Assembly: GCA_020724865.1 (NCBI GenBank)
Contig: DYGA01000001.1
Span: forward strand, 89,438 to 153,437
From: Candidatus Paceibacter sp.
GTDB lineage: Bacteria > Patescibacteriota > Patescibacteriia > S139-126
DNA length: 64,000 nt
Reading direction: 5' to 3'
Shown here: positions 1,132 to 60,023 of the stretch, one piece after another
Layout of the letters: every line of letters starts with the position of its first letter
Position numbering within the stretch: position 1 is the stretch's first letter
Program-made: the position numbers and the translations under genes
The notes under the pieces: model-generated
Told to the model about the DNA's origin: nothing
Seen by the model: the letters and a program-made list of their open reading frames with translations, nothing else
Database searches by the model: none

Positions 1132-3342
1132 TTACTCCTTATTTAATTCTTGTTTTTCAGAATAATTTTGCTCTAACTCATTTTCTACATCCATCTCATA
1201 TTCATCACGTGATATCAATACTTCTCTGGGTTTAGCACCATCTCCAGGACCAACCACACCCTCATTTTCCAATAAATCTAACAATCTAGCCGCCCTGGAA
1301 TACCCCACTCTTAATCTTCTTTGTAAATAAGAAGCTGAAGCCTTTTGCGCTTGAATTACTAAATTTCTAGCTTCATCAAGTAAATCATCTTCGTTACTAC
1401 CATAATCCAAACCATTGATACCTTTGTGCTTCTTTTCAGTAATTGTTTGATCATATTCAACTTCAGTGCCATTTTGATTTTTTATATATTCCGTAATCCG
1501 ATTTATTTCTTCATCTGACACTAAGGCTGATTGCAAACGTTTTGGTTTTGATAAATCTGCTGAAATATAAAGCATGTCACCTTTACCCAATAATTTTTCC
1601 GCGCCCGAACTATCCAAAATAGTTCTAGAATCAGTTTGCGAGGCGACGGCAAAAGCAATCCGAGTAGTAATATTTGCTTTAATGAGTCCAGTAATAACAT
1701 TAACTGATGGTCGTTGAGTTGCCAATATCAAATGAATGCCAACCGCTCGGGCCATTTGGGCTAACCTAATAATAGCAGCTTCTACTTCCTGGGCAGCCAC
1801 CGACATTAGATCAGCTAACTCGTCAATAATGATCACAATATATGGCATTTTTTCATTGGGAAAATCTTGATTATATCCAGCAATATTTTTATGTTTAGTC
1901 TGTGATAATTTAACATACCTTTGATCCATTTCAGCAACTGCCCATTTTAAAGCATTAATAGTTTTTTGTACATCTGTTATCACTGGCGTATAAAGATAAG
2001 GCAAATCATTATAGGCAGATAATTCCACTCGCTTGGGGTCTACCAAAATAAAACGCAAATCTTCAGGATTATTTTGATAAAGTAAACTAACAATAATTGT
2101 ATTGATACAAACTGATTTACCGCTGCCAGTGGCTCCAGCTATCAATAAATGAGGCATTTTATCTAAATTAGCCGTCCAAACTTTACCGGCCACATCCTTG
2201 CCGAGGCCAATGGTTAAATTGCTTTGCCTGGTGGTAAATTCTTTAGAAGTAATAACCTCGCGTAAGGATACGGTGGCAATAGATTCATTGGGCACTTCAA
2301 TGCCAACTAATGATTTCCCCGGAATTGGCGCCTCAATTCTTATGGGATGGGCTGCCAAAGCTAAAGCCAAATCATTATGTAAAGCAGTGATACTAGCTAA
2401 TTTCACTCCTTCCACTGGTCGCAGGGTATATTGAGTTACGGTAGGGCCGACACTAACTTCACCCATTTCAACCTCAATACCAAAATTTTGCAATGCTTTT
2501 TTAATTTTTTCTTTATTAGCTTGAATATCACCGCTAGTTGGTTTAGATCTAGTAGGATTAAGTAGATTAATTGGTAACTCAATTTTAACTGATTTTTTTG
2601 GCACAACAATTAACTCGGCTTGTTCGCCTTGATTTAAATTTAATTCTTTTTTGGAAAATTCAATCTCTGTTGCATTATCTGTCAATTCGTCACTAATGGG
2701 AGTTGTTTCATCCTCTTCTTCATCTTTAACATCTCTGGTTAGGCGATCATCACGATGACTAAAATGAAACCACCAGGAAGAAATTTTTTCTCTCCATAAA
2801 ATTAAATTATCAAACTTAACTAAAATAGATTGAAAAGAGGTATTAAATGTTAAAAATAAACCAATTAAAAGTAAAGCTATTAAAACAATAATAGTTGCCC
2901 AAAAACCAAATAATTTAAAAAGTGGCCATGTCACCAACCAACCAAACCAACCGCCTCCAGCGCCATTAATTAAATTTTGAAATGACATTAATTCATAATC
3001 ACGACTAACATGCAATAAACCAAGCAATGCTAAAAAAAATAAAACTAAACCTAAATAATGATTGGGCTTAACACCAAAACGTTCGCTGTCGATAAATAAA
3101 AAACCAACCAATAAAAAAATAAAAGGAAATAAAAAATAAAGCTTACCAAAAAAATATTTTAAAATTTTTAGTAAATAAATACCTACTACACCTGCCGAAT
3201 CAAATAAACTTAAAATCAATAAAGTGGATAGTAATAATACAAAAACAACTCCGATTGATTTTTTTGTTTCCGGAGATAAATGAAAGTTATTAGTCCAAGT
3301 AAATAATTTACTACCACTAAGATTATATTTTCTTTTTTTCAT
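1132..3342 (-). CDS. ftsK: DNA translocase FtsK/SpoIIIE
   Basis: N-terminal polytopic membrane region, linker, and a C-terminal motor domain with Walker A LIAGATGSGKSVCINTIIVSLL and the FtsK gamma-like tail. Confidence 0.9.
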   Translation of the reverse strand: MKKRKYNLSGSKLFTWTNNFHLSPETKKSIGVVFVLLLSTLLILSLFDSAGVVGIYLLKILKYFFGKLYFLFPFIFLLVGFLFIDSERFGVKPNHYLGLVLFFLALLGLLHVSRDYELMSFQNLINGAGGGWFGWLVTWPLFKLFGFWATIIVLIALLLIGLFLTFNTSFQSILVKFDNLILWREKISSWWFHFSHRDDRLTRDVKDEEEDETTPISDELTDNATEIEFSKKELNLNQGEQAELIVVPKKSVKIELPINLLNPTRSKPTSGDIQANKEKIKKALQNFGIEVEMGEVSVGPTVTQYTLRPVEGVKLASITALHNDLALALAAHPIRIEAPIPGKSLVGIEVPNESIATVSLREVITSKEFTTRQSNLTIGLGKDVAGKVWTANLDKMPHLLIAGATGSGKSVCINTIIVSLLYQNNPEDLRFILVDPKRVELSAYNDLPYLYTPVITDVQKTINALKWAVAEMDQRYVKLSQTKHKNIAGYNQDFPNEKMPYIVIIIDELADLMSVAAQEVEAAIIRLAQMARAVGIHLILATQRPSVNVITGLIKANITTRIAFAVASQTDSRTILDSSGAEKLLGKGDMLYISADLSKPKRLQSALVSDEEINRITEYIKNQNGTEVEYDQTITEKKHKGINGLDYGSNEDDLLDEARNLVIQAQKASASYLQRRLRVGYSRAARLLDLLENEGVVGPGDGAKPREVLISRDEYEMDVENELEQNYSEKQELNKE

Positions 3343-10144: not shown

Positions 10145-11209
10145 ATGTCCAGTTTAAATACAAAAAATATGAATTTAGAAAACCTATTTGAAATTGCTGT
10201 AGAAAACAATGCTTCTGATATTCATCTTTTAGTAGGTAAATCGCCTATTTTACGTGTTTCTGGAGACTTAAAAGAACTTAATGATTTACCTATTATCGTC
10301 CCTGAACTTATTCAAAAAATGATTAAAGAAGCAATAAACGAAAAACAGTATGAGACCTTTATAAAAGATCGTGAATTAGATTTTTCTTATCCTTTAAAAA
10401 ATGGCACCCGCATGCGTGTTAATCTATTTTGGGAAAAAGAAAACATGGGCCTAGTCGCTAGAGTTGTGCCCAGTAAAATTCCAGCGATGAAAGAAATTAT
10501 GATGCCTGAAGTTGTTTATCGCTTAACTAGGTTAAATCAAGGATTAGTTTTGGTAACTGGACCCACTGGTTGTGGTAAATCCACTTCTCTGGCAGCTATG
10601 ATTGAGCTGATTAACTCAGAAAGAGGGGTAAATATTGTTACTCTAGAAGATCCAATTGAATTTGTTTATAAAAACAAAAAATCTATTATTAAACAACGTC
10701 AACTTGGTTCTGATATGCTATCTTTCCAATCAGCCTTAAAACACGTTCTACGCCAAGACCCTGATGTTATTTTGGTAGGAGAAATGCGGGATTTAGAAAC
10801 AATAGCTGCAACTATTACTTTGGCCGAAACTGGACACTTAGTTTTTGCTACCTTACATACGCTCAATGCCTCTCAAACTATTGACCGTATTATTGATGTT
10901 TTTCCGCCATACCAACAACCACAAGTAAGATTACAAGTCTCAATGACACTAGCCGGTATTGTTTCACAAAGACTCCTGCCAAAAAAAGATGGCGGCATGG
11001 TGGCTACTCGTGAAATTCTTATTAATACTCCAGCTATTTCAAATTTAATAAGAGAAAATAAAATTCAACAAATTAAAACTATTATCCAAACTTCAGCCGC
11101 GGAAGGCATGATTTCTATGGATCAAGATCTAAAACGATTATACAATGAAAACTATATCGATAAAGAAACTGCCAAACAATACATGATGGATCCCAATAGT
11201 TTAAAATAA
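10145..11209 (+). CDS. pilT: Type IV pilus retraction ATPase PilT
   Basis: GLVLVTGPTGCGKSTSLAAMI Walker A, Asp box, His box and the PilT-specific AISNLIRENKIQQI motif. Its 354-aa length fits PilT rather than PilB. Confidence 0.85.
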   Translation: MSSLNTKNMNLENLFEIAVENNASDIHLLVGKSPILRVSGDLKELNDLPIIVPELIQKMIKEAINEKQYETFIKDRELDFSYPLKNGTRMRVNLFWEKENMGLVARVVPSKIPAMKEIMMPEVVYRLTRLNQGLVLVTGPTGCGKSTSLAAMIELINSERGVNIVTLEDPIEFVYKNKKSIIKQRQLGSDMLSFQSALKHVLRQDPDVILVGEMRDLETIAATITLAETGHLVFATLHTLNASQTIDRIIDVFPPYQQPQVRLQVSMTLAGIVSQRLLPKKDGGMVATREILINTPAISNLIRENKIQQIKTIIQTSAAEGMISMDQDLKRLYNENYIDKETAKQYMMDPNSLK

Positions 11210-11224
11210 ATAAATTTTATATTA

Positions 11225-11254
11225 AAAAACTCCACCCTTATGGTGGATTTTTTA
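11225..11254 (+). terminator. Rho-independent terminator after pilT
   Basis: Hairpin tccacc-ctta-tggtgga followed by TTTTTT. Confidence 0.6.
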
Positions 11255-11321
11255 TGATGCTTTTGTTTTACGAAATCCTAATCTATTTTGAACGAAACTG
11301 ATAACACATGAACGCAGTCAA

Positions 11322-11400
11322 ATCGGTCAGTAAAATTTCTGAAAGTCAAATCTTGGTGCAATTATATGACCAAATCCGAACTCACTTCGAGCGGGACTAA
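11322..11400 (-). repeat. Decayed copy of the tRNA-Lys 3' end (…gttcggatttggtcatataattgCACCA) plus ~45 nt of its 3' trailer
   Basis: In minus sense, cacca-agatttgactttcagaaattttactgaccgatttgactgcg aligns at ~70% with the trailer directly 3' of tRNA-Lys (cacca-gtatcaaactttcaggaattttgccgaccgattcagccgcg). The T-loop-like gttcgga is retained. Confidence 0.55.
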
Positions 11401-11511
11401 CCGCCTCGCTTCGCTCGGCGTACGCTCGGGCGCGGCGGAATTCCCCCCTTGAACCCCCCTTCCGCCGCGCCCTCGCGGGAGGCCAAAAATTTTTTCGCCG
11501 CCAAAAATCAA
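11401..11511. other. GC-rich structured island with a perfect 13-bp stem gggcgcggcggaa/ttccgccgcgccc around a 19-nt C-rich loop, plus smaller GC palindromes
   Basis: Local GC is far above the genome background. The overlapping ORFs (11327..11569, 11449..11697) are Arg/Pro-rich translation artifacts. Confidence 0.5.
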
Positions 11512-11799
11512 CTAGAAAAGAGTATTGATTGCGATAGATCCACCAATCCAAAGCAGGATTGCCAACCACCCAAGGTTATTAGCCTTCTTAGCTTTCTTCG
11601 GCAATCTTTTTTTCCAGCCGTAGTAAAAAATCGCCTGTGCGATGAGGGGAGCAAACAGACACAAAATGAATACATACCAAAGAACATTTCCGCTTAGTGG
11701 TGATTCGTCCACCTGACCTTCGGGCACAGAGGATTTTTCTTTTCTCATCACAAAAAACGAAATGATGCCGGGGATGAGTGTGAAAATTAGTAAATTCAT
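11512..11799 (-). CDS. Small membrane protein (3 predicted TM helices), hypothetical
   Basis: ORF with hydrophobic segments and genome-typical AT-rich codon usage. Confidence 0.5.
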   Translation of the reverse strand: MNLLIFTLIPGIISFFVMRKEKSSVPEGQVDESPLSGNVLWYVFILCLFAPLIAQAIFYYGWKKRLPKKAKKANNLGWLAILLWIGGSIAINTLF

Positions 11800-11812
11800 A
11801 GTTTTTGATTAT

Positions 11813-12574
11813 TTATTTTTTAATTTGTAATTCTTCTCTCAGAAAATTAGTCAACGGGTGCGTATACACATTCAGTATATAACTATAAGGATTATCTGTA
11901 AACGGATTTTTTGTGGACAGTAAAGATTGCTGTACTTCTCTGATTGGGTTTGGATTTTCTTTGACCATTCTCTCTAATTCTTCTTGGGAGACAAAAATAG
12001 AGGTGTCATAAACTTGCACCGCTATTTCTCGACCTTTGTCAGTTTTTACAAATTCCACAGAATCCATTTCCGCTATTCGTTGCAATGCTTCCGAGGTAAA
12101 TGTTGATAATTCATCTCCTTGTATATTTAGACCAAATTTCTGCGGATTAGAAAGAATTGCGGCGTGAGAAGTAAAAACGGCTAGAAAAATTATTCCCATC
12201 GCTATAGCAATAGAAGGAAATTGTTTTTGAGGATTAACAAAACCGTAGTAAGAAGCGAGGGTGATTAGTCCAGTAGCAAGAATTAAATATACGAGTTGTA
12301 TTCCGTTCGGAATGGAAAAAAGTAAAATTCCAAGAGCAGCAGTAAGAGCCGCCCAACCAACAAAAATCCAACTTTTTTCACGGACAGTGAATAGTCCGAG
12401 TACAAATAAGCTCGCGAGCGTTATTGTAGTGCTAGAACTTAAAATTTTTTCTGGTACAGAAAACAAAAACAACGCGGGGATGAAAAATATCCCAGCGTAA
12501 ATCATCAATAGCCAACCCATAAATATAGCTGACGATTGGAAAAGCTGTTTATGTTTTTGAATGAAATTTTCCAT
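11813..12574 (-). CDS. Membrane protein (4-5 TM) with a C-terminal soluble domain, hypothetical. The start is reassigned to the internal Met (MENFIQ…); the upstream GC-rich extension is not coding-like.
   Basis: The ORF-track N-terminal 30 aa (ETLAPPAQRGSPSAGSSQRF) come from the GC-rich hairpin region and match neither the composition nor the usage of the rest of the gene. Confidence 0.5.
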   Translation of the reverse strand: MENFIQKHKQLFQSSAIFMGWLLMIYAGIFFIPALFLFSVPEKILSSSTTITLASLFVLGLFTVREKSWIFVGWAALTAALGILLFSIPNGIQLVYLILATGLITLASYYGFVNPQKQFPSIAIAMGIIFLAVFTSHAAILSNPQKFGLNIQGDELSTFTSEALQRIAEMDSVEFVKTDKGREIAVQVYDTSIFVSQEELERMVKENPNPIREVQQSLLSTKNPFTDNPYSYILNVYTHPLTNFLREELQIKK

Positions 12575-12597
12575 AGCAAAATTAAAAGGTTGCCGCC

Positions 12598-12721
12598 AAA
12601 GAAATCTTTGGCTCGAACCTGCGCTTGGCGAGCCGCGCTGTGCGGGGGGAGCCAGTGTTTCCATTCTCTGCCGCGCTTCGCGCGGCTGAATCGGTCGGCA
12701 AAATTCCTGAAAGTTTGATAC
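12598..12721 (-). other. tRNA-Lys 3' trailer module: conserved AACTTTcaGGAATT motif followed by GC-rich hairpins (gccgcgc-gaag-gcgcggc; ggctcg…cgagcc; ccaaag-attt-ctttgg)
   Basis: Lies directly 3' of tRNA-Lys on the minus strand. It is related to the orphan copy at 11322-11361 and more distantly to the 3' flanks of tRNA-Arg and tRNA-Leu(TAG). Confidence 0.5.
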
Positions 12722-12797
12722 TGGTGGGTCGCACAGGACTCGAACCTGTAACCAATTGCTTAAGAGGCAACTGCTCTACCAATTGAGCTAGCGACCC
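12722..12797 (-). tRNA. tRNA-Lys (anticodon CTT), CCA encoded
   Basis: Minus-sense gggtcgc-ta-gctc-aattggta-gagc-a-gttgc-ctCTTaa-gcaat-tggtt-acagg-ttcgagt-cctgt-gcgaccc-a-cca gives a cloverleaf with a 7-nt anticodon loop. Confidence 0.85.
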
Positions 12798-12818
12798 AAT
12801 TTTAAATTAAATAATAAC

Positions 12819-12842
12819 GACTAATTTCTAATTACTAAACAA
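12819..12842. repeat. 21-mer gactaatttctaattactaa, exact copy of the motif at 51635-51655
   Basis: Exact 21-nt match between two promoter-proximal regions of minus-strand genes (tRNA-Lys here, rpsP there). Confidence 0.5.
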
Positions 12843-13022
12843 TATACTAATAGCAAATAATTAAATAATGGTCAATGCTAAATTATATATTCTCAATTTT
12901 AAATTTAAAAATATATTATATTTTAAAATAAGTTTAAATAATTTATGTCCTCCCTTATAACGATAAGGAGCATCTACTCGGCAAACGCAACTTTTCTGCC
13001 GAACAATAAAATTTCAAGTTCC

Positions 13023-23626: not shown

Positions 23627-23703
23627 GCGCGTATAGCTCAGTTGGTTAGAGCACCACTCTTATAAAGTGGGGGTCGATGGTTCAAGTCCATCTACGCGCA
23701 CCA
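23627..23703 (+). tRNA. tRNA-Ile with anticodon TAT (decodes AUA), CCA encoded
   Basis: gcgcgta-ta-gctc-agttggtta-gagc-a-ccact-ctTATaa-agtgg-gggtc-gatgg-ttcaagt-ccatc-tacgcgc-a-cca. The anticodon stem is 5 bp, which places TAT at positions 34-36. Confidence 0.8.
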
Positions 23704-28920: not shown

Positions 28921-29032
28921 AGTTCCCGCGCCGACCTACTTTCCCCAGATGAGTATCATCGGCGCTGATAGGCTTAACTTCCGTGTTCGGAATGAGAACG
29001 GGTGTGGCCCTATCGCTGTAGGCACGGGAACT
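28921..29032 (-). rRNA. rrf: 5S rRNA
   Basis: Minus-sense agttcccgtgcctacagcgatagggccacacccgttctcattccgaacacggaagttaagcct…ggcgcgggaact. Helix I closes the ends. Confidence 0.9.
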
Positions 29033-29079
29033 ATATATCTTATTTATAATTAAATAACTAAATAATTAGTCAATACAAT

Positions 29080-32234
<3,155 letters not shown>

Positions 32235-46885: not shown

Positions 46886-48370
<1,485 letters not shown>

Positions 48371-48416
48371 AGTGAGAATTGATTGATCTCAAAATATGAG
48401 ATCTGACTCTCAAAAG

Positions 48417-51109: not shown

Positions 51110-51161
51110 TAACTTTATTTCAAATAAAAATATGACTCAGATTTGAGTCATATTTTTATTA

Positions 51162-59393: not shown

Positions 59394-60023
59394 TTAATTA
59401 AACTTAATATTACTTAAAAAACTAATTCGATGCTGATTACTAATACCATATTTTTTTATTGCTTGTAAGTGTTCTGCAGTACCATAGCCTTTATGTTTAG
59501 CAAACTGCCAGCGATTATCCTTCAGATCTAAACTTTTCATTAAATTATCTCTATACACTTTGGCTATAATTGAAGCAGCGGCTACTGAAAAAAAATTACT
59601 ATCGGCTCTTATAATACCTTGATTTGCTACTACTAAGGGTAGGTCCTGCCAAAAATCAACCAAAACAAAATCGGCTTGTTTTTTTAAATTTTTAAAAGCT
59701 CTAAGCAAAGCTTTGTGGTTAGCCTTATTTATGCCTATTTTTTCTATCTCGGCCACAGTTACCACACCGACCGACCATATTAAATTTTTAATTATAGTTT
59801 TATATAATAATTGTCTTAGCTGAGGATTCAATTTTTTCGAATCATTAACTTTCTGTAATAAATAATTTTCCTTTTTTCTTAAATCTAAACCATCTTCAAT
59901 CAACACACAGCCGGCTACTATGGGACCAGCCCAAGCCCCTCTACCGGCTTCATCCAAGCCGGCTATTTTCTTATAGCCTAATCTAATTAATTTTCTTTCT
60001 TTATTTAAATTCATTTTAATCAA
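59394..60023 (-). CDS. rnhB: Ribonuclease HII
   Basis: GLDEAGRGAWAGPIVAGCVL catalytic DEDD region. Confidence 0.9.
   Translation of the reverse strand: MIKMNLNKERKLIRLGYKKIAGLDEAGRGAWAGPIVAGCVLIEDGLDLRKKENYLLQKVNDSKKLNPQLRQLLYKTIIKNLIWSVGVVTVAEIEKIGINKANHKALLRAFKNLKKQADFVLVDFWQDLPLVVANQGIIRADSNFFSVAAASIIAKVYRDNLMKSLDLKDNRWQFAKHKGYGTAEHLQAIKKYGISNQHRISFLSNIKFN

Follow-up and report, generated by a model that had tools for sequence, protein, structure and literature searches.

The two GC-rich islands that stand out in the AT-rich DNA studied here are very probably the conserved ends of a small integrative element, found in Patescibacteria (candidate phyla radiation, CPR), that would be moved by a large serine recombinase (LSR). 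On this reading, which rests on sequence comparison, both islands become a legible history in which an element integrated at a tRNA-Lys gene and later lost its recombinase, while two membrane-protein genes were kept and an older scar lies beside them. The original prediction had named recombination sites of a putative element among several possibilities, and this turned out to be essentially right, as the islands appear as attL and attR/attP-type junctions together with the conserved flanking modules of an LSR element. The whole stretch analysed, 64,000 nt with a GC content of 34%, is referred to as the window, and loci from other sources carry L numbers. The proteins encoded next to the islands have their nearest relatives among Parcubacteria/Patescibacteria sequences.

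In a 60-nt scan of the window the top GC spots were 11370-11505 (peak 0.78) and 12587-12703 (0.73), both richer in GC than any rRNA segment, so that the prominence ascribed to the islands at the outset was borne out. The first island contains the hairpin described originally, i.e., GGGCGCGGCGGAA, a 19-nt loop TTCCCCCCTTGAACCCCCC and TTCCGCCGCGCCC at 11428-11472, whose sequence and 13 perfect pairs are as reported then and whose pairing, when extended over 11423-11477, covers 18/18 positions with 89% complementarity. With a GC of 0.85 its stem is the sole GC-rich perfect stem of at least 12 bp in the window, the six others being AT-rich (GC 0-0.33), and the longest stems in 20 first-order Markov shuffles of the window had 10-13 bp. 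The hairpin of the second island, gccgcgcttcgcgcggc (17 nt, 12670-12686), consists of a 7-bp stem and a TTC triloop (GAA on the other strand). It had been read as gccgcgc-ttcg-gcgcggc with a UUCG tetraloop, which needs correction: the sequence is GCCGCGC-TTC-GCGCGGC, and a C(UUCG)G tetraloop is ruled out, there being no four-base UUCG loop. The smaller motifs listed originally (gcgtacgc, ggctcg...cgagcc and ccaaag...ctttgg) are all present. What had been missed is a 38-nt direct repeat (11321-11358 and 12689-12726; 79% identity, 0 expected by chance), which ties island 1 to island 2 and of which both copies begin with CACCA on the minus strand, one of these being the end of tRNA-Lys.

Some further properties of the window were recorded. 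The longest perfect stem is found in a 17-bp AT-rich hairpin at 51123-51160 (GC 0.18, 4-nt loop), which exceeds all 20 shuffles. The only other GC-rich spot outside rRNA and tRNA, 59903-59965, lies inside a 209-aa minus-strand ORF (59394-60023) and is hence ordinary coding sequence. The rRNA genes (28923-32224 and 46887-48371) are unlinked, the 16S gene lying ~14.7 kb from the 23S/5S genes, and the 23S alignment contains large insertions, e.g., 58 and 66 nt at places occupied by 3 and 1 nt in the model; such properties are typical of CPR genomes. Finally, a tRNA-Ile at 23627-23703 has a genomically encoded TAT anticodon, which is uncommon in bacteria, where AUA is usually decoded by a modified CAT tRNA.

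Read from the tRNA gene towards the host flank, the window element has the following parts:
12909-12882: promoter-like site before the tRNA-Lys gene.
12722..12797, minus strand: tRNA-Lys(CTT) gene (ARAGORN; Rfam tRNA, 73 bits).
3' end of that gene (...GACCCACCA), minus strand: proposed host arm of the left junction (attL).
12689..12726, minus strand: motif a', the 38-nt repeat copy directly after the tRNA CCA; proposed element arm P' of the att site.
12586..12726, plus strand: island 2, by translation a fossil of the last 47 LSR codons (KVAAKEIFGS...SLILV), cut upstream by stop codons and fused to the antisense strand of tRNA-Lys.
12670..12686: y hairpin, GCCGCGC-TTC-GCGCGGC, within LSR codons (AALRAA); its minus strand contains GCGAAGC.
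12591..12606: boundary box TGCCGCCAAAGAAATC, junction between LSR fossil and cargo.
11813..12574, minus strand: cargo gene 1, a 253-aa predicted membrane protein.
11512..11799, minus strand: cargo gene 2, a predicted membrane protein of 95 aa, located downstream of gene 1 in every case.
11481..11509: inner edge of module X, comprising the near-palindrome GGCCAAAAATTTTTTCGCC and the boundary box CGCCGCCAAAAATC.
11423..11477 (core 11428-11472), minus strand: hairpin 1 with its invariant 13-bp stem; on this outward strand the loop is G6-TTCAA-G6-AA and the flanks are GCGA...GAGC (tandem G.A).
11403..11419, minus strand: hairpin 2, GCC-GA-GC-GAA-GC-GA-GGC, with a GCGAAGC tip and tandem G.A.
11359..11400, plus strand: outer end of module X and proposed element arm P of the att site, encoding the alternative C-terminal LSR tail QLYDQIRTHFERD and its stop; its minus strand ends ...TTGCACCA.
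11321..11358, minus strand: motif a, the second 38-nt repeat copy, which reads SVSKISESQILV in frame with the tail and together with 11359-11400 makes up an attP-type junction.
11260..11301, plus strand: decayed, AT-rich second LSR tail or P arm (LLFYEILIYFERN and stop, translated by eye in the frame starting at 11260), 84% identical to L029 1006-1055.
11224..11253: bidirectional intrinsic terminator of pilT (hairpin 11231-11247), in the host flank beyond the element.

The coding nature of island 2 became evident from its plus-strand translation, which reads KVAAKEIFGSNLRLASRAVRGEPVFPFSAALRAAESVGKIPESLILV and then continues into the tRNA-Lys antisense strand. The intact LSRs of L056, L087, L093, L133 and L149 end alike, each being joined to its own tRNA; 41 of 46 aligned residues of the window fossil match the L087 LSR tail (~89%, counted by hand), and at the DNA level island 2 is 85-91% identical to the a-y copies of the same five loci. 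The statement that neither island codes plausibly is thus refuted for island 2 and upheld for the hairpins of island 1, as hairpin 1 loop lengths of 17-21 nt exclude coding; likewise, the possibility raised with it, that the islands might be conserved coding N-termini, applies in part, island 2 being a C-terminal fossil and not an N-terminus. In the 64-kb window this 47-codon 3' fossil is all that was found of an LSR gene, and hence nothing there is mobile on its own.

Among the matches listed, an LSR gene was identified near the hairpin in 31 loci, encoding proteins of 492-565 aa with Resolvase, Recombinase and Zn_ribbon_recom domains and matching the integrase family phrog_95 (E 9e-83). It reads outward in 19 of the 71 listed X copies with enough flank (median 296 nt). 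On one side of the cargo the order is X, motif a (the 38-nt repeat), y and LSR gene, the latter meets the 3' end of a tRNA gene with its own 3' end, and another a-y copy, in inverted orientation, stands directly after the CCA of that tRNA, which yields the complete layout tRNA / a-y <- LSR <- y-a / X - cargo - X / host flank, where the a-y next to the tRNA holds the last LSR codons on the opposite strand. Past the distal X, the flank typically holds a terminator of the usual kind, with hairpin and T-run, which is what one would expect behind a tRNA gene. Motif a' was found after the CCA of tRNA-Leu and tRNA-Glu as well as after the module X end (L050, L056, L087, L105, L153). Where a-y is joined to X, the frame runs from ..SLILV directly into (R/E/Q)L(F/Y)(D/N)xxRT(Y/F)FERN-stop, with the stop codon just before hairpin 2. 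The tail peptide ..RT(Y/F/H)FERN-stop is retained in 52 of 110 X copies among the matches listed despite divergent DNA, and the X tail completes intact LSR ORFs in L069 and L132. An additional, internal attP-like copy, comprising a truncated LSR tail ORF of ~52 codons plus X, was observed between LSR start and cargo (L029 895-1150; upstream of the LSR in L056, L086, L133, L135 and L149).

Two junction states of the same recombinase gene were thus available for comparison. Within one LSR subfamily the identical breakpoint ...TTGGCGG is followed by TGATATTTTACAC when joined to X, versus AGGAGGTGGGACTCGAACC when joined to tRNA-Ser. In L069, whose LSR is 96% identical to that of L086, ...GAAGTTTCTATTGGCGG is followed by TGATATTTTACAC... 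of X, resulting in an intact 543-aa ORF that ends in FERNGN-stop. The X-joined state also occurs in the S2 copies of L086, L135, L134 and L061, and the tRNA-Ser antisense-joined state in L135 and L061. The subfamily of the window likewise shows ..SLILV continued by the tail versus ..SLILV continued by tRNA antisense, L132 representing the attP state. Based on these junctions, attP would span the outer ~29 bp of X plus the ~29-bp motif a, attB would be the 3' end of a tRNA gene, and the crossover would fall at or beside the CCA or discriminator. As the LSR frame crosses attP, integration would swap the last ~13 residues (..LYDxIRTYFERN-stop) for tRNA antisense read-through. A CGAACC motif, probably the one that is recognised, is separated from the junction by 18-19 bp in the element arm and by 13-14 bp in the tRNA arm, where it is the T-loop; this spacing matches the described shift by which the zinc-ribbon motif of attB is ~5 bp nearer to the crossover than in attP (PMC3783163).

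Two other readings of these junctions were discarded. Duplication of a tRNA fragment, the classic att arrangement of tyrosine integrases, is ruled out as the repeat lies downstream of the CCA and no tRNA-Lys fragment precedes the second copy. A tmRNA- or tRNA-like nature of the ...GCACCA end of X received no ARAGORN or Rfam call, the 'GGTTCG...CACCA' stretch consisting of LSR tail codons (RT..FERN-stop) plus att arm. An empty tRNA-Lys site was not found in relatives when homologues of the neighbouring SET-domain gene were used, the relatives not being syntenic. The whole 2064-nt contig L100, in which an MFS-like gene and an HTH gene accompany a truncated LSR, has a 50-nt terminal overlap that closes X/a-y, and its inner hairpin 1 is halved at a deletion point (around 330-365); it may represent a mini-element closely resembling that of the window, present either as an excised circle or in a tandem array. 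In L092, at 11771 and 13407, the LSR 3' end is joined to an X tail (AATTATATAACTCTGCTCGAAC..., ELYNSARTFFERN-like) of another subfamily than the upstream X, which suggests recombination between subfamilies. In L112 1-2951, whose ends overlap by 74 nt, X is accompanied by an HTH gene and by six small cargo genes, and an a-y module is missing, a topology at odds with the simple model.

Well over a hundred metagenome contigs from groundwater and lakes contain the hairpin module. At least 120 metagenome matches were obtained for the exact 13-bp stem with a loop of 17-21 nt, and the exact stem of hairpin 1 was counted in at least 123 sources (121 metagenome loci, L029 and the window); viral contigs gave 0 matches to the exact 13-bp hairpin, and a phage is therefore not evident. 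A scan of the genome collection with the A5T6 palindrome pattern returned only two real instances, L029 and L032, the other matches being mostly chance ones from unrelated phyla. In L029, a Liptonbacteria contig, island 2 runs directly into the 38-nt repeat and this into island 1 (Y-A-X), after which come an HTH gene, a different cargo and an inverted X copy. Module X measures ~170-190 bp and comprises the boundary box, hairpin 1, hairpin 2 and the LSR tail codons ending ...CACCA. When the listed copies were oriented by their flanks, the loop read G6-(TGTG or TTCAA)-G6-AA on the outward strand in 127 of 137 and was inverted in the remaining 10, L029 included; GCGA...GAGC flanks, with their potential for tandem G.A pairs, were present in 117 of the copies listed. 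The outer stem of hairpin 2 differs by subfamily (CCGCC/GGCGG, TTGGC/GCCAA, CCGGC/GCCGG) and still pairs, its inner core GAGC-GAA-GCGA being kept across subfamilies. Among subfamilies that differ in att arms and LSRs, no piece is better conserved than hairpin 1. In all 17 two-copy loci among the matches listed the copies are inverted repeats facing away from the cargo, 1.5-4.5 kb apart, with inner ends sharp just past the CGCCGCCAA box and outer ends sharp at ...CACCA or ...CAC. As the module is near-invariant across hosts of 32-54% GC and the dead copy has drifted to host composition, the GC richness of the islands finds its explanation here.

The structure of the window itself was recovered from two further samples at 99.8% identity (L156, L161), whereby the L156 assembly ends exactly at the 12591-12606 box and the L156 and L161 assemblies break at the box or inside hairpin 1. 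Within island 2 the window differs from both only at 12632-12647 (CGGGGGGAG versus CGCGGCGAG), and in the frame of the fossil LSR these changes leave the residues R G E unaltered. Relative to the window, L029 (948-966) and L056 have the loop of the y hairpin inverted, which turns AALRAA into AARSAA; since this inversion changes the peptide within the LSR tail, the hairpin looks more constrained than the peptide.

It had been considered that the islands are structured ncRNAs, and their high GC in an AT-rich genome, which is typical of structural RNAs, as well as the stable predicted folds (-67.7 and -47.4 kcal/mol) would agree with independent RNA genes. This is nevertheless highly improbable. 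The corresponding z-scores of -1.7 and -1.4 are, as modelled, not exceptional for the composition of the islands, and a covariance search of Rfam 15 over 11100-12950, proposed originally as a check, reported only tRNA-Lys both at the gathering threshold and at E<=10 (best other match in island 1: 13.7 bits, E 8.7), so that neither island was assigned to a known RNA family. Furthermore, island 2 is a coding fossil, the loop of hairpin 1 varies in length and is inverted in the 10 copies mentioned, and the module is always attached to LSR or cargo units.

Between the modules lies a variable cargo. The 253-aa and 95-aa proteins of the window gave no family match in Pfam, PADLOC and PHROG, and the larger one has 20 homologues (55-100% identity) in differing genomic contexts. 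In these homologue loci the gene pair is found in unrelated neighbourhoods, usually with a small HTH gene upstream, always adjoins some tRNA 3' end and is often flanked by inverted repeats (206 nt at 97% in L008; 107 + 61 nt in L005). A segment of L001 is 95% identical to island 1, its coding DNA only 80%. In the vicinity of the L005 cassette, a LAGLIDADG-type ORF (2317-3318) was noted just upstream of the preceding tRNA-Ser, this relative having 52% GC. Other loci hold unrelated cargo, e.g., SHOCT/DUF4429, tRNA_anti-like, APH + AAA, DUF3800, histidine phosphatase or TPR genes. As a cargo head segment of ~310 nt lies by the LSR-proximal X in L133, L148 and L105 and by the distal X in L060, the cargo inverts between the X repeats, which may occur by ordinary homologous recombination.

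Inverted repeats of up to ~200 bp around cargo (L008, L005), together with the many short contigs that break inside the repeat, could also be taken as terminal inverted repeats of a transposon, as REP/MITE-like repeats depending on a non-LSR transposase, or as integron-type attC sites. We consider this just as highly improbable, for the recurrent neighbour of the module is the LSR gene and no recurrent transposase, Y1/RAYT or IntI gene was found beside it, nor was a tyrosine recombinase seen among the module neighbours inspected. Moreover, LSR codons and tRNA junctions, instead of target-site duplications, are what is found at the outer ends, and the X and a-y modules of the window differ in sequence and are thus not repeats of each other.

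Taking the LSR element as the preferred reading, the window would have arisen by integration at the CCA of tRNA-Lys, after which the body of the LSR gene would have been deleted along with the inner X copy and the HTH gene, and the two membrane-protein genes left behind in the order y(fossil)-box, 253 aa, 95 aa, box-X. Island 2 would hence correspond to attL plus the 47-codon LSR fossil, and island 1 to module X in an attP-type junction with the second motif a, followed by the decayed sequence at 11260-11301, which is probably the relic of an older, almost wholly deleted copy. The second motif a and the decayed tail suggest tandem occupancy followed by deletion. As identity between both copies of the 38-nt repeat is no more than 79% and the X-side junction is attP-like and no clean attR, this history is a reconstruction and was not observed as such.

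The function of the hairpins is a separate question. LSRs are not known to need flanking hairpins of ~150 bp. In the window hairpin 1 stands directly after the last cargo gene, and in contigs showing the attP state it comes after the stop codon of the LSR and is located between convergent genes, which would be appropriate positions for unusual Rho-independent terminators lacking U-tracts, as had been proposed. That they act in this way is quite improbable: a T-run follows neither hairpin on either strand, the terminator scan calls only 11231-11247 outside the element, and an inner X copy between divergent genes has no obvious use for a terminator. The same lineages carry canonical hairpin-plus-T-run terminators just outside the elements, so that terminators without U-tracts are unsupported as their normal type. 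Their location between the LSR stop and the end of the convergent cargo operon (attP), and after the last cargo gene in the window, weakly favours another role, and we tentatively suggest that the hairpins, lying where the LSR and cargo units converge, may serve as a transcription barrier or as a structure that protects 3' ends, which would act on the purine-rich outward strand. Considering the promoter-like site and that no terminator precedes the cargo, the cargo mRNA may run via X to the terminator at 11231-11247.

It was also considered that module X is a working part of the element, i.e., a strand-asymmetric RNA or ssDNA that would be recognised by the LSR, a directionality factor or an HTH protein, for example as a boundary site for cargo cassette exchange or as a regulator of LSR expression. 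For this speak the conservation of hairpin 1 across subfamilies in spite of their differing att arms and LSRs, the sharp inner and outer ends around cargo that is unrelated by locus, the loop orientation of 127:10 among the matches listed, the pairing of the hairpin 2 outer stem despite its differences between subfamilies, and the placement of all conserved tandem G.A pairs and GCGAAGC tips on one strand (PMC13037366). Loop flips are tolerated, however, and wobble variants at the base of hairpin 1 (9 on one strand versus 6 on the other, tallied by hand) favour neither strand; taken together with the folding energies of both strands they give no consistent preference for a structural strand. 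Furthermore, characterised serine integrases use 40-50-bp sites without accessory DNA (PMC3783163), and att function consequently leaves hairpins 1 and 2 unaccounted for. Such a working part is rated as rather unlikely. The more specific proposal that X is a strand-specific structured element needed by these LSR elements, e.g., a docking or exchange site for cargo swapping between two X copies, is judged unlikely; if true, ultra-small bacteria would possess an equivalent of the integron platform that is based on a serine recombinase.

Serine-integrase islands at tRNA genes are a known kind of element, and literature searches found no published description of elements like the present ones in Patescibacteria. 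What is new is the hairpin module, together with a cargo bay bounded by inverted repeats, a reading frame that crosses attP and the broad occurrence in CPR metagenomes. The data indicate a widespread, apparently undescribed family of very small Patescibacteria serine-integrase elements in which the sites of element and host are readable from sequence, the targets are tRNA 3' ends and an extremely conserved hairpin module surrounds varying cargo. This bears on gene exchange in genome-reduced, largely uncultured bacteria, and the compact new integrase/att pairs are candidates for genome-engineering tools.

Known systems share single properties with these elements. The archaeal integrase gene of the SSV1 type overlaps attP and is split by integration, so that there, too, the recombinase gene 3' end is altered; the enzyme is a tyrosine recombinase, whereas here a serine recombinase is involved and only the last ~13 codons are exchanged. 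The invertible segments of the phages Mu (G/gin) and P1 (C/cin), the latter with inverted repeats of 0.6 kb whose outer ends contain the crossover sites, resemble the cargo bay in that a segment flanked by inverted repeats has a recombinase gene just outside and occurs in both orientations among relatives. The recombinase here is an integrase-type LSR and not an invertase of ~190 aa, and no enhancer was identified; a small serine invertase system (Gin/Cin/Hin) was hence rejected on account of the 492-565-aa length and the integrase domains, the layout being only analogous. With the unusually stable DNA mini-hairpin d(GCGAAGC), known from phage single-strand origins and aptamer engineering (PMC13037366), the element shares the exact heptamer, which on the outward strand is the tip of both hairpin 2 and the y hairpin and has the potential for sheared G.A pairs; in contrast to the phage origins, no replication function is evident in module X. 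As in integron attC cassettes, variable cargo is bounded by conserved, hairpin-forming, strand-asymmetric and sharp-edged modules, although no IntI tyrosine recombinase was seen among the module neighbours inspected, the R/L box organisation appears to be absent and the modules are conserved in both sequence and structure and are inverted instead of direct in orientation. The closest comparison is with the serine-integrase elements of the phiC31, Bxb1, A118 and SCC type, with which relatives of the window element have in common the Resolvase, Recombinase and zinc-ribbon domains, short sites, hybrid junctions after integration and a distal motif that is ~5 bp closer in the host site. Unlike these, the elements described here target the 3' ends of many different tRNA genes, measure only ~3.5-7 kb, possess a second, inverted attP-like copy and GC-rich hairpin modules of ~170 bp flanking the cargo, and have an LSR frame that crosses attP, the copy in the window having lost its LSR.
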